Positions 8,704-39,960 of a DNA stretch of 64,000 bases are shown one piece after another (position 1 is the first letter of the stretch; each line of letters opens with the position of its first letter). The position numbers and the translations under genes were made by a program. The notes beneath the pieces were generated by a model that saw nothing but the letters and a program-made list of their open reading frames with translations, was not told where the DNA came from and ran no database searches. This DNA is from a virus, in the IMG/VR virus record IMGVR_UViG_3300028127_000003; one strand, written 5' to 3'.

Positions 8704-8712
8704 ATTAAAGGG

Positions 8713-8786
8713 TACTCTCGACGGGACTTGAACCCGTAACCTTGACCGTATAAGGATCCTGCTCTAACCGATTGAGCTACAAGAGT
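8713..8786 (-). tRNA. tRNA-Ile(UAU)
   Basis: Acceptor ACTCTTG/CGAGAGT, D arm GCTC/GAGC, anticodon loop CT-TAT-AC, T arm ACGGG-TTCAAGT-CCCGT; no encoded CCA. Confidence 0.85.
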
Positions 8787-8795
8787 ATATATTCG

Positions 8796-8868
8796 TGATC
8801 CCTCAGGGGCTCGAACCCTGGACCCTCACATTAAAAGTGTGATGCTCTACCAACTGAGCTAAGAGATC
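8796..8868 (-). tRNA. tRNA-Lys(UUU)
   Basis: TCACA-CTTTTAA-TGTGA anticodon arm; full cloverleaf. Confidence 0.92.
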
Positions 8869-8872
8869 ATTG

Positions 8873-8946
8873 TGAACCAGGTAGGATTCGAACCTACGAC
8901 CGTCGCCTTAGAAGGGCGATGCTCTATCCAGCTGAGCTACTAGTCC
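8873..8946 (-). tRNA. tRNA-Arg(UCU)
   Basis: TCGCC-CTTCTAA-GGCGA anticodon arm; full cloverleaf. Confidence 0.92.
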
Positions 8947-8980
8947 ATTCGTTAAGTTTAATTTGATTTGTGAATTATAA

Positions 8981-9094
8981 AGAAAAGAAGCTACCCTTAA
9001 GCGCGAGACTCGTCAGTCTCCTTGTTAGAATTTGATACGCTGTTTCGGCCGGACCATAGTGTATATGGAGTTTACCTTTATCTCTTGCTTTTCT
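8981..9094 (-). ncRNA. Unclassified structured RNA candidate inside the tRNA cluster
   Basis: Closing helix AGAAAAG(C)AAG/CTTCTTTTCT, hairpins CCATA/TATGG and GAGACT-GACG-AGTCTC, helix AGCG/CGCT; GC-richer than its flanks. Confidence 0.55.
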
Positions 9095-9100
9095 ATGTTG

Positions 9101-9186
9101 TACTCGAGGCGGGACTTGAACCCGCACGAACATTACTGCTCAATGGATTTTAAGTCCATCGTGTCTACCAATTCCACCACTCGAGC
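9101..9186 (-). tRNA. tRNA-Leu(UAA)
   Basis: ATGGA-CTTAAAA-TCCAT anticodon arm, long variable arm. Confidence 0.92.
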
Positions 9187-10972: not shown

Positions 10973-10983
10973 AAAAATGAAAT

Positions 10984-11349
10984 TTATTCACACATACCGT
11001 AGTTTGATAAAAAGGTAAGAAGATCCTCTGCTCCTACTATTCCATCTCCATCAAAATCACCTTCACATTCAGTTTCTGGTTGAATACAGGAAGCGTAATT
11101 GGGGTGTTCATTCGCCAAAGGAAATACAAATCCATCCCCATTTAAAACAAAAGCGGTGCCAATATCTGCACAAAAGATTATAGTATATCCTCCAGCGGGA
11201 AGACCAAAGTAATGATTCCATCCATCACAGTCTTGATATTGGAAGTTAGTCCATTTCTCAGCTCCGACTGAGGAAAAAACATGTTGATTGCATTGTGCTA
11301 CTGTGTAAAATGGTAAAAGAAATAATAAGGAAATAAGTAATGATTTCAT
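10984..11349 (-). CDS. Secreted protein with C-terminal EF-hand/dockerin-like loop
   Basis: Signal peptide MKSLLISLLFLLPFYTVAQ; GDFDGDGIVGAEDLLTFLSNYG. Confidence 0.7.
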   Translation of the reverse strand: MKSLLISLLFLLPFYTVAQCNQHVFSSVGAEKWTNFQYQDCDGWNHYFGLPAGGYTIIFCADIGTAFVLNGDGFVFPLANEHPNYASCIQPETECEGDFDGDGIVGAEDLLTFLSNYGMCE

Positions 11350-11350
11350 G

Positions 11351-12628
11351 TTATCTAAATATTGTTATATGTCCGTGTCTTTGAAAGATTTCGGTTGAGT
11401 TTAATTTTCTTGCGTAGAACGTATATGTGTAAACGCCATCAGATGCATAGTGATTACCACCATTTACACTTCCATCCCAATAAGGATATGAATCGTAATA
11501 ATCACCCATACCTGAATAGATCATGTCACCCCATCTATTAAATATTTTAAATTCTACATCGACCCAACATTCTAAATCATAAACCATTTGCCATGTATCA
11601 TTTAAACCATCATTATTTGGTGTAAATGTATTTGGAAGATAAACTGAAGTCCAATCTGGGCAAGTTAATCCAGGATCATCAATACATTCTAATCCAGTTT
11701 CACAATCAATAGAAATATACTCATAAACCGTATCTGTTAAGAATTCATATACAATAACTTCAACTGTATCGACAGTTGTAATAAAAAGAGTGTCAGTAAC
11801 ATATTCTGTAATGTACTCAATTTCAGTAATAGTATCGGTGATAAAAACCTCAACGAAAACTTCAACATCAACGTATACCGTGTCAATGGTTTCTACATAA
11901 AGAGTATCAGTAATAAAATTGTCTACATATTCAATAATAGTATTAGTTACATAAAGGGTATCGATAGTTTCTATGTAAATCGTATCAGTAATGTATTCGA
12001 TTATAGTGTCAGGTACACAAGGATCGTAGCAAACAGCTATTCTATTATCATCTATATTAATATCAGGATATGTCTGTGTCTGATTAAAACTATTGCCAAC
12101 AGTCCATCCATTATCTGGAAAATCATCATAACCTGCCGTTTGTGATAAATTAATTTGCCAAATTACTACTTCCCAACAATATCCCTCAAGAGGTGTGGCT
12201 AAAATACATTCCCAAGCAAATGGTGGATTTATATTAATAGTAACAACATCGCCAGTTTCCCAACCACCCCAATTTGTAACATTAGTATATGACCAACCTG
12301 GATGAAATGTTGTAGAAGTACAATCTGTGTTTTCTCCTAAGTCTTCTCCAGTGATTTCATTTACATAATGAATACCAAAAACAAGATGAGATACATTTTC
12401 ATTATTATTTACGGAACTAGACCCATTGCCATCGCAAGTATTTCCATCGTATTGAGTAAATTCATTACATCCACAATTTTCTGCATTAACAAATTCAATT
12501 ACAAAAGAATGGTCATCTTCTGTTGTGGCAGGTGGTGTTTGACTTATGAGTGTTAAATCACAGGTTTGCGCATAGGCGCTAGTAACTAGGAAAAGCCCCA
12601 GAAAGGCTATCATTGAGTATTTCAGCAT
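11351..12628 (-). CDS. Secreted protein with gliding-motility-associated C-terminal (T9SS type B, CHU_C) domain
   Basis: Signal peptide; C-terminus YLPNTFTPNNDGLNDTW...IFNRWG..IY...WDG...GVYTY...GHITIFR. Confidence 0.88.
   Translation of the reverse strand: MLKYSMIAFLGLFLVTSAYAQTCDLTLISQTPPATTEDDHSFVIEFVNAENCGCNEFTQYDGNTCDGNGSSSVNNNENVSHLVFGIHYVNEITGEDLGENTDCTSTTFHPGWSYTNVTNWGGWETGDVVTININPPFAWECILATPLEGYCWEVVIWQINLSQTAGYDDFPDNGWTVGNSFNQTQTYPDINIDDNRIAVCYDPCVPDTIIEYITDTIYIETIDTLYVTNTIIEYVDNFITDTLYVETIDTVYVDVEVFVEVFITDTITEIEYITEYVTDTLFITTVDTVEVIVYEFLTDTVYEYISIDCETGLECIDDPGLTCPDWTSVYLPNTFTPNNDGLNDTWQMVYDLECWVDVEFKIFNRWGDMIYSGMGDYYDSYPYWDGSVNGGNHYASDGVYTYTFYARKLNSTEIFQRHGHITIFR
11715..12020 (-). 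repeat. Degenerate TDT(I/L/V)Y-type repeats forming a stalk in the T9SS cargo (approximate bounds)
   Basis: ITDTIYIETIDTLYV...ITDTLYVETIDTVYV...ITDTITEIEY...VTDTLFITTVDTV...LTDTVYEY. Confidence 0.65.
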
Positions 12629-12719
12629 TTGTAAAAAAAGTGTTTAATAGATTTCTGCCCAAGAAGTTAAATGTCAGCGTTCTGACGTGGGCTTAGGTTA
12701 TATATCTGATATATACTAT

Positions 12720-13097
12720 ATGAAAACACCGATTATTAAATATAGTGACAGATTTTTAAACGCAGTAAGCTGGTTTATGTCAATTGGAGGAATTACCCTT
12801 TGGCCCTTTATCGTTCTAAGAGAAAAGTATGATTCTGGTAAATGGTGGAGAGGAAGAGCGAAGAGGATTATTAATCATGAATCTATACATATAAAGCAGC
12901 AGGAAGAACTTTTAGTGATTCCTTTCTATATTCTATATGTTACTGAATGGTTTATAAAATTGTTCATCTATGGAACCGGAGCATACCGTAACATCTCATT
13001 TGAAAGAGAAGCGTATGCCAATGAAAAGAATTATAAATACTTAGAATCCAGAAAAAGATATAACTGGATTAAGCTTATATTTAAGCGTGAGGTATAA
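12720..13097 (+). CDS. HExxH-motif membrane protein
   Basis: INHESIHIKQQ.ELL..PFY..Y...AYRNISFEREAY; start MKTP follows GATATATA at 12708. Confidence 0.7.
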   Translation: MKTPIIKYSDRFLNAVSWFMSIGGITLWPFIVLREKYDSGKWWRGRAKRIINHESIHIKQQEELLVIPFYILYVTEWFIKLFIYGTGAYRNISFEREAYANEKNYKYLESRKRYNWIKLIFKREV

Positions 13098-13650: not shown

Positions 13651-13714
13651 TAATTACTTATCTAATATAAGCAAAATTTCTGAGATAAAAAAACTTTTTA
13701 CTGTTTATTTTCAA
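13651..13714 (-). promoter_or_regulatory. Early-type promoter repeat, copy 3
   Basis: Same core. Confidence 0.75.
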
Positions 13715-24002: not shown

Positions 24003-24079
24003 TGGCGGTCTGGACGAGACTCGAACTCGCGACCCCATGCGTGACAGGCATGTATTCTAACCAACTGAACTACCAGACC
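24003..24079 (-). tRNA. tRNA-Asp(GUC) with encoded CCA
   Basis: CATGC-CTGTCAC-GCATG anticodon arm; 3' GCCA. Confidence 0.93.
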
Positions 24080-24084
24080 AATTG

Positions 24085-24169
24085 CGGAGAAGAAGGGATT
24101 CGAACCCCTGGAACCGTGAAGTTCGCTGGTTTTCAAGACCAGTGCATTCGACCACTCTGCCACTTCTCC
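24085..24169 (-). tRNA. tRNA-Ser(UGA)
   Basis: CTGGT-CTTGAAA-ACCAG anticodon arm; long variable arm. Confidence 0.93.
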
Positions 24170-39914: not shown

Positions 39915-39960
39915 ATTACTAATATAAGCAAAATTTCTGAGATAAAAAAATATTTCAGCA
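39915..39960 (-). promoter_or_regulatory. Early-type promoter repeat, copy 7
   Basis: Same core, upstream of rnh. Confidence 0.7.

Follow-up and report, generated by a model that had tools for sequence, protein, structure and literature searches.

We analysed a 64,000-nucleotide stretch of DNA (the window) from the IMG/VR virus record IMGVR_UViG_3300028127_000003, the source of which is a large marine phage, probably of Bacteroidota. [quoted passage not shown] Taken together, the evidence makes it reasonably likely that the two genes form a late-expressed, mobile cassette of Bacteroidota phages, the cargo of which would be exported through the host T9SS to remodel the surface of the infected cell. 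The T9SS is the main route for surface building in Bacteroidota, and a phage family that apparently loads its own cargo on this route would be evidence that the host surface is actively rebuilt by marine phages. T9SS cargo encoded by phages is known as such; what is new here is a family of type B phage cargo with a novel passenger and a conserved partner.

The cargo protein and its sorting domain

An earlier reading made from the letters of the window (the sequence-only reading) had proposed this open reading frame, and the frame holds to the exact coordinates on the minus strand with 425 codons for amino acids. The Sec signal peptide, Cys-containing N-terminal domain and TDT-type stalk that it described are likewise all present in the sequence, and its type B CTD is confirmed by profile searches. 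The CHU_C family (PF13585) matches residues 331–408 with an E-value of 1.2e-13 and 51.4 bits (Pfam cut-off 27), and the NCBIfam model for the T9SS type B sorting domain (TIGR04131) matches residues 331–423 of 425 at 41.9 bits (cut-off 35), spanning profile positions 3–83 of 85. The domain sits at the extreme C-terminus of the protein and scores above both curated cut-offs. Secretion of type B cargos needs five conserved CTD motifs, A–E (PMC12618676), and in a 43-sequence alignment of the family the invariant CTD residues are N333, P337, N338, D340, N343, D344, R365, W366, G367, W384, G398, Y400 and G419. These residues and the nearly complete profile match are compatible with motifs A–E. In the full-length AlphaFold2 (AF2) model the CTD is a confident beta-sandwich (pLDDT ∼85), and it is preceded by a linker of the form IDCETGLxC in which C309 and C315 are invariant and C323 is nearly so. 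The mature protein is very acidic, with 68 Asp and Glu residues versus 7 Lys and Arg. The mean pLDDT of the full-length model is 57, and the Foldseek matches that it gave to C5a peptidase and factor XIII, with TM scores <0.2, were discarded; the sole match of a sequence profile search against the PDB, phospholipase A2 at E 0.21, was judged to be due to chance. No PHROGs family, structural or other, was matched by the cargo protein or the partner.

A search of 5.8 billion proteins returned 666 matches, the best 120 of which all carry the same CTD; about 100 of these 120 are full-length relatives at 53–96% identity and the rest represent a longer form of the protein. Judged by sequence features, the leader of the cargo protein consists of a Lys in the n-region, a hydrophobic core and then AYA followed by Gln. 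A leader directly followed by Gln recurs in 120/120 of these best-scoring homologues, which have 57 distinct leader sequences, and likewise in more distant loci. The Q-rule, by which substrates of signal peptidase I have Gln at +1, is specific to Bacteroidetes (PMC5837995) and has already been reported for proteins of Porphyromonas phages (PMC10367356). The cargo protein has, on these features, a Bacteroidota-style Sec signal with a Gln predicted to be exposed at +1.

The N-terminal domain behind the signal (the N-domain) contains seven invariant Cys residues and the aligned motifs ENCGCNE, HPGW, WQINLSQTA and TQxYPD. Modelled alone with AF2 from 50 sequences, it is a beta-sandwich with long loops (pLDDT 84.9, pTM 0.86). 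Foldseek found no specific match to this model (best E 0.016). A wide VIA-align search placed an agarose-binding carbohydrate-binding module (CBM) at the top with Z 5.6, tied with Ig, FN3 and archaeal pilin folds; the usual background in such searches gives a best Z of 7–8, and because the observed value falls below it and is tied across CBM, Ig and FN3, assignment of the N-domain to the CBMs or to another fold family was rejected. Scores from an ESM Atlas search with the N-domain (≤0.76) were uninformative. Pfam detects no cohesin (PF00963) in the cargo protein, and none was found in the top 50 VIA-align rows or in the 59%-complete 178-kb record, where a search for CsgG was likewise negative.

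The stalk that follows has eight [TIV]DT motifs and 26 Asp and Glu residues with zero Lys or Arg, and its pLDDT in the AF2 model is <30. Between the YPD motif and the linker (the stalk plus ∼17 residues of the N-domain), homologues have 80 to 452 amino acids; no tandem repeat is present in the stalk DNA, the repeat being degenerate and at the level of the protein. In the longer form of the cargo (∼540–550 amino acids; L011:6001-7626, L025 and L075:6001-7647, where L-numbers are our labels for related loci), an extra Cys-containing domain lies between the N-domain and the stalk, and in L016 and L060 this second Cys-containing domain stands where the N-domain would be. The longer form and the replacement in L016 and L060 thus indicate a passenger region built of exchangeable modules.

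Mobility of the cassette

Comparison with other phages delimits both the cassette and a smaller segment within it. L002, an otherwise barely similar phage, shares exactly the stretch 12707–10982 with the window at 90.6% nucleotide identity. L011 and L072 are 97.2% and 96.7% identical to the window at the nucleotide level on either side of 12620–11943, with no match inside these limits. From these patterns it follows that the cassette is exchanged between phages as a unit and that the N-domain is swapped within it. Swaps of the N-domain between 97%-identical phages would be typical of the surface modules of an arms race, and their sharp bounds point to an interface of this kind.

The partner gene and Ca-loop proteins

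The ATG of the partner gene starts 1 nt past the stop codon of the cargo gene. The partner has a leader of its own that is followed by Gln at +1, contains six or seven conserved Cys residues and has a C-terminal loop-helix of the form DFDGDG...DLL..L..Y that resembles a Ca-binding loop. IMG/VR contains 79 distinct loci with cassette-related cargo, some of them complete genomes bounded by direct terminal repeats (DTRs), and a partner homologue is found in 47/79, directly adjacent in 42 and a gene or more away in 5. It lies downstream of the cargo in the window phage and in some other loci, but usually upstream, with other neighbours not conserved. The partner is 65–79% identical in nearly all loci whose cargo protein is only 37–40% identical. 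A regular expression for the Ca-loop gave 47 matches in the six-frame translation of 793 kb of related loci, and one in the 64-kb window; all 47 lie on the cargo strand within 2.7 kb of the cargo, 41 of them in the adjoining gene within 320 nt, and zero matches occur in the 11 loci whose large gene is without the N-domain. In L016, a phage ∼84% identical to the window phage, the N-domain is replaced and the partner is exactly deleted. In L050 and P0124 a Peptidase_M43 domain forms a direct fusion with the N-domain, the stalk and the type B CTD, whereas in L073–L075 the upstream partner is a larger secreted M43 metallopeptidase with the same Ca-loop and weak signals of a type A or type C CTD; these M43 protease genes, which have Sec signals, are located at L050:2070-4976, in P0124, and at L073:3668-5674 and L075:4692-6008. 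The patterns of gene neighbourhood and gene fusion argue that the Ca-loop proteins would work together with the N-domain.

The sequence-only reading did not tie this protein to the cargo gene and named PorP/SprF as the usual partner; no match to PF11751 was found in the record or in the related phage genomes searched, and the conserved partner is the Ca-loop protein. The partner itself was rejected as a PorP/SprF shuttle, as it has 121 amino acids versus ∼300 for the outer-membrane beta-barrel and does not match PF11751, and as an o-spanin lipoprotein, as Gln rather than Gly, Ala or Ser precedes the Cys. Its likeness to dockerins and EF-hands is at the level of the motif, because all matches lie below cut-off. 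The window partner matches EF-hand models only (E 0.16–0.31) and has a single loop-helix segment, whereas dockerins have duplicated segments, and the dockerin models PF00404 and NF041540 do not identify it as a dockerin. The partner homologue of L025 matches Dockerin_1 at E 0.26, and that of L073 matches the GC-type dockerin at E 2.5e-4 with 21.4 bits, below the cut-off of 29.

The question of a shuttle

For secretion and anchoring, type B cargos normally rely on a cognate PorP/SprF-like protein (PMC9143113, PMC12618676); anchoring to PorP-like proteins is documented (PMC9143113), and type B CTDs bind their shuttles specifically (PMC12618676). Orphan type B cargos also occur, as 3/12 in Flavobacterium johnsoniae share the unlinked shuttle Fjoh_1677 (PMC12618676). 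PF11751 has no match in the 178.7-kb record of the window, in three related phage genomes with a completeness rating of 100% or in one further record that is 52% complete, in a search that recovered five copies from the metagenome-assembled genome (MAG) of a Flavobacteriaceae member as the positive control. As no shuttle is encoded by the phage, the cargo would have to use one of the host. Exactly one CHU_C gene is present in each of four phage genomes rated 98–100% complete (58.9–164 kb), three of which were also among those searched for PF11751.

Phage context and distribution of the family

The window belongs to a record of 178,737 bases that CheckV rates 59% complete. Its genes include those for a tail sheath, large terminase, portal, major head protein, head maturation protease and DnaB-type helicase, as well as a DNA polymerase, ribonucleotide reductase, ATP-dependent ligase and SbcC-like nuclease, and nearly all lie on one strand. 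The window is from a T4-like myovirus, and the cargo gene is flanked by phage genes on both sides. The sequence-only reading had named a missing CTD match or flanks of host DNA as grounds for giving it up; examined in silico, the match is there and the flanks are those of a phage. The 178.7-kb record has a single CHU_C gene and no type A CTD.

Some of the best 120 homologues lie on contigs of 144–250 kb, and one is named for 'Virus NIOZ-UU157'. The N-domain alone occurs in 43 clusters among 1.84 billion representatives at 50% identity, and its profile, run against 185,579 species genomes of bacteria and archaea, matched two contigs only, both phage-like. These are L081 (PAUJ01000025.1) and L082 (WLWP01000006.1), from MAGs assigned to Flavobacteriaceae and 'Pseudomonadales', respectively; one of the two contigs has a ligase and a Mom-like protein, the other GroEL and a tail fibre, and the 'Pseudomonadales' label probably reflects an error of binning. 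Five PorP/SprF genes are present in the Flavobacteriaceae MAG. The ESM Atlas cluster of the partner has 706 members, and every one of known phylum is a virus. By these homology searches the cargo and the partner are almost entirely restricted to viruses, and the near absence of the N-domain elsewhere indicates that the passenger domain evolved in phages rather than through recent capture of a host gene. The family is spread across several marine phage lineages and is abundant in ocean metagenomes, and its viral origin is hidden by the annotation 'gliding motility-associated'. Among GenBank phage records, tblastn gave matches only in two uncultured huge phages, hence no cultured relative. The matches in these unannotated genomes of 642 and 635 kb (LR756502.1:518992-519387 and LR745206.1:15118-15471) are 31–33% identical and cover the C-terminal third of the protein (query residues 287–425 and 305–425), from the last part of the stalk through the linker and type B CTD.

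The host is pointed to indirectly, by the Q-rule, by the motif TAnnTTTG at −12 in related phages and by the related phage contig that was binned in a Flavobacteriaceae MAG; these pointers support a host in the Bacteroidota. A 64-kb cassette phage, L021, also encodes a 712-amino-acid protein with a type A T9SS CTD a few genes upstream (L021:458-2596), which scores 39 bits with Por_Secre_tail and 42 bits with TIGR04183, so that some phages carry cargo of both type A and type B. In the same phage an endolysin-like gene (phrog_3000/33083; L021:5058-5663) stands immediately before the partner gene.

Promoters and timing of expression

The motif GATATATA upstream of the cargo gene occurs in 10 copies on the minus strand of the window, 8 of which are intergenic and 2 of which overlap the 3′ end of the preceding open reading frame (ORF). 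All 10 lie upstream of an ORF start, 9 of them 28–41 nt before the start codon, and copies precede the genes for the tail sheath and the head protease. By this distribution GATATATA is the late-type motif of the window phage, and the late-type promoter that the sequence-only reading had placed at 12699 is borne out as a motif shared with structural genes. The classical T4 late promoter TATAAATA shows no enrichment upstream of genes and was rejected as the motif of this phage. A second promoter-like element, highly conserved and ∼34 nt long (TTTTTTATCTCAGA..TTTTGCTTATATTAGTA), is found on the minus strand at 39932, 22084, 20794, 14780, 13675, 10932 and 4689, and stands 32–48 nt upstream of the genes for a sigma factor, a nucleotidase, an exonuclease and several small proteins, including the gene after the cassette. 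This element is probably an early/middle promoter class distinct from GATATATA, and the copies at 13675 and 10932 bracket the cassette.

In distant lineages a different signal precedes the cassette. The sequence TAnnTTTG, which we take to be the Bacteroidetes −7 promoter consensus, is matched exactly in 8/27 distinct upstream regions (∼1.2 expected by chance), 7 of these 8 at −12, and TAnnTTTA is found at −12 or at about −31 to −33 in ten further upstream regions. The presence of TAnnTTTG in these lineages supports a Bacteroidota host and implies that the timing of expression differs between lineages.

Proposed mechanism and alternatives

We infer export and function of the cargo protein from its sequence signals, and the steps proposed are as follows. 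Both proteins would cross the inner membrane through Sec, and the CTD would pass the larger one through the translocon of the host T9SS. A host shuttle of the PorP/SprF type would then hold the cargo on the outer face of the outer membrane, as SprF holds SprB; because the phage encodes no shuttle, the cargo would need to act in the manner of the 'orphan' type B cargos of F. johnsoniae. On its stalk, the N-domain would stand off the surface as a binding module, with which the small partner may work. The most likely payoff, and the weakest step, would be a surface of the infected cell remodelled late in infection, which could mask or displace T9SS-dependent receptor proteins and thereby restrict superinfection or the number of progeny lost on lysing cells. 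In Flavobacterium, mutations in T9SS and gliding genes make cells resistant to phages, and SprB and RemA are believed to act as receptors (PMC9804748); given this receptor role and the arms-race character suggested for the N-domain, surface remodelling is favoured, with adhesion or substrate binding as its main rival. We also put forward, tentatively, a more specific form of this proposal, in which a mobile display system that evolved in viruses and is common to marine Bacteroidota phages would hijack the T9SS and a host PorP/SprF shuttle through its CTD and plant a phage-specific receptor domain on the cell, to which the dockerin-like partner or, in some lineages, an M43 protease might dock, the rapidly swapped N-domain then mediating competition between phages by superinfection exclusion or protection of progeny.

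Several observations weigh against export for surface remodelling as set out above. No cognate PorP/SprF protein is linked to the cargo; the majority of characterised type B cargos require one. The partner is without a CTD that would carry it beyond the periplasm, and its dockerin and EF-hand matches are sub-threshold. Three complete phages of 58–61 kb have the cargo gene without a partner, which is therefore dispensable in some lineages. That the N-domain is a binding-type module is a guess from its fold class, the model having no informative structural match. As regards timing, the copy of GATATATA at 12699–12706 lies 78 nt from the cargo ATG at 12628, an atypical spacing that is kept at −78 to −80 in L002, L011 and L072, and the host-type TAnnTTTG before the cassette in other lineages means that timing is not uniform. 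Late expression also argues against classical early superinfection exclusion, and the late-type promoter is more in line with a function at a late stage of infection.

The same architecture may be read differently. A beta-sandwich on a long stalk with a type B CTD is the build of surface adhesins, and the exported protein might bind carbohydrate or otherwise serve adhesion of the infected cell, to particles of algal polysaccharide or to neighbouring cells, as an auxiliary 'virocell' function. The top structural neighbour of the N-domain is indeed an agarose-binding CBM, with a porphyran-binding CBM at rank 48 (Z 4.4) tied with Ig and FN3 folds, and the M43 metallopeptidase of some relatives would suit a function of the exo-enzyme type. 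However, a best Z of 5.6 lies below background and so assigns no CBM, the N-domain is restricted to viruses rather than borrowed from the polysaccharide-degrading genes of a host, and its swaps between near-identical phages suit an arms race better than a housekeeping adhesin, so that we regard this explanation as rather unlikely. It is less likely still that the protein is a decoy whose CTD blocks the T9SS translocon or the PorP/SprF shuttle and halts host secretion and gliding, with display incidental or absent. Such a role would accord with the lack of an encoded shuttle, with the specific binding of type B CTDs to shuttles (PMC12618676) and with the phage resistance that follows loss of the T9SS in Flavobacterium (PMC9804748), but a seven-Cys N-domain, a stalk of 80–450 amino acids and a conserved partner would be needless for a decoy, and it is the passenger, not the CTD, that varies between strains.

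The late-type promoter shared with structural genes, and the position of the L021 cassette beside an endolysin-like gene and further large proteins whose function is unknown, would also be in keeping with a constituent of the virion, for example a fibre or decoration protein, in which the CHU_C-like beta-sandwich is purely structural and the N-terminus is no working signal peptide. This is highly improbable, as the leaders are diverse yet signal-like with Gln at +1 in 120/120 of the listed homologues, the partner has a leader of the same kind, no structural family in PHROGs is matched, and the window gene lies outside the structural block, between promoters of the early/middle type. Finally, the label 'gliding motility-associated-like protein' that databases give to homologues could suggest a bacterial gliding-motility gene misjoined to phage DNA through host contamination or a chimeric assembly. 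The evidence already refutes this: the same cassette is found in 79 viral loci including DTR-bounded complete genomes, nucleotide identity to the sister phages is continuous across both junctions, and the 2 matches in 185,579 bacterial and archaeal species genomes are both on phage-like contigs.

Comparison with known systems

Like the bacterial type B cargos (SprB with SprF, and PG1035 with PorP of Porphyromonas gingivalis), the cargo protein combines a Sec signal with a C-terminal TIGR04131/PF13585 domain above cut-off, and an adhesin-like passenger on a repetitive stalk. It resembles the orphan cargos Fjoh_1123, 1720 and 4934 of F. johnsoniae (shuttle Fjoh_1677) in having no adjacent shuttle gene. 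It differs in being encoded by phages of the lytic type, in its virus-restricted N-domain and in an export that is predicted from sequence, and it is far shorter (425 amino acids versus ∼6,500 for SprB). The linked gene in the phage cassette is that of the 121-amino-acid Ca-loop protein, in contrast to the PorP/SprF barrel of bacterial type B systems. A compact natural type B CTD (∼100 amino acids) on an orphan cargo would serve studies of shuttle specificity.

The sequence-only reading went too far in holding that no phage system of this kind had been described. Bellas et al. (2020) reported that 'Cryophage' encodes T9SS cargo of type A and suggested roles in superinfection or competition (PMC7468147), and de Jonge et al. 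(2019) found ORFs with T9SS sorting domains in crAss-like lineages (PMC6949934). Our literature search found no description of type B cargo in phages, or of this family and its partner. The present cassette shares with these systems sorting-domain genes that are phage-encoded and vary between near-identical genomes (metagenomic islands), and a proposed role in surface modification or superinfection that is bioinformatic only in each case. Cryophage differs in that type A CTDs (PorV/PorU route, anchoring to A-LPS) are carried on an endoglucanase, a GH39 glycoside hydrolase and a PA14-domain protein, whereas the window cargo is of type B (anchored by a shuttle) with a novel passenger and a conserved partner; for the crAss-like ORFs, one of which has BACON repeats, the type of the sorting domain is not given in the paper.

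At its C-terminus the partner has a DxDxDG loop and a helix akin to one dockerin segment, and the longer partners of L025, L039 and L073 have two dockerin-like segments, which recalls cohesin–dockerin assemblies; unlike in these, no Pfam or NCBIfam model for dockerin or cohesin reaches its cut-off, and the likeness is one of sequence. Llp of phage T5, and Imm and Sp of phage T4, are exported proteins that alter the envelope of the infected cell against further attack or loss of progeny. Their export takes Sec or lipoprotein routes in Proteobacteria, and early genes encode most of them; the parallel with the cassette would be one of function, with no sequence relationship.

Features of the locus

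Table 1. Features of the cassette and its surroundings in the window
Feature	Position	Strand	Basis or remark
Mobile cassette (promoter, cargo gene, partner gene)	10982..12707	−	Comparison with L002
Partner gene: 121-amino-acid secreted Cys-rich protein, predicted to be co-transcribed	10984..11349	−	Adjacency, conservation
Dockerin/EF-hand-like Ca-loop and helix motif (DFDGDGIVGAEDLLTFLSNY), C-terminus of partner	10999..11058	−	Regular expression
T9SS type B cargo gene including stop codon, 425 amino acids	11351..12628	−	
T9SS type B CTD, residues 325–425	11354..11656	−	PF13585 and TIGR04131
Conserved Cys linker IDCETGLxC, residues 309–324	11657..11704	−	Alignment
Acidic DT-rich stalk of variable length, residues 205–308	11705..12016	−	Composition
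Recombination-swapped segment (signal peptide and N-domain)	11943..12620	−	Comparison with L011 and L072
Cys-rich N-domain, virus-restricted, modelled as beta-sandwich, residues 21–204	12017..12568	−	Alignment, AF2
Sec signal peptide, residues 1–20, predicted cleavage between AYA and Q	12569..12628	−	Sequence features
Short GC hairpin in 5′ leader	12673..12686	−	Terminator-like scan; kept, with changes, in L011, L072 and L002
Late-type promoter motif GATATATA	12699..12706	−	Back-to-back with plus-strand copy at 12708–12715

The back-to-back pair of GATATATA motifs separates the cassette from a divergent gene at 12721–13097, the sole plus-strand gene nearby. Its product of ∼125 amino acids, which has no Pfam match, contains two hydrophobic segments and an HESIH (HExxH) motif; its conservation is limited to the closest sister phages (L011, L016 and L072). 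The window also contains two clusters of tRNA genes, at 8710–9186 and 24003–24169, one with Ile-TAT, Lys, Arg-TCT and Leu-TAA and the other with Asp and Ser (six in total), and in several related phages the cassette directly adjoins tRNA genes.

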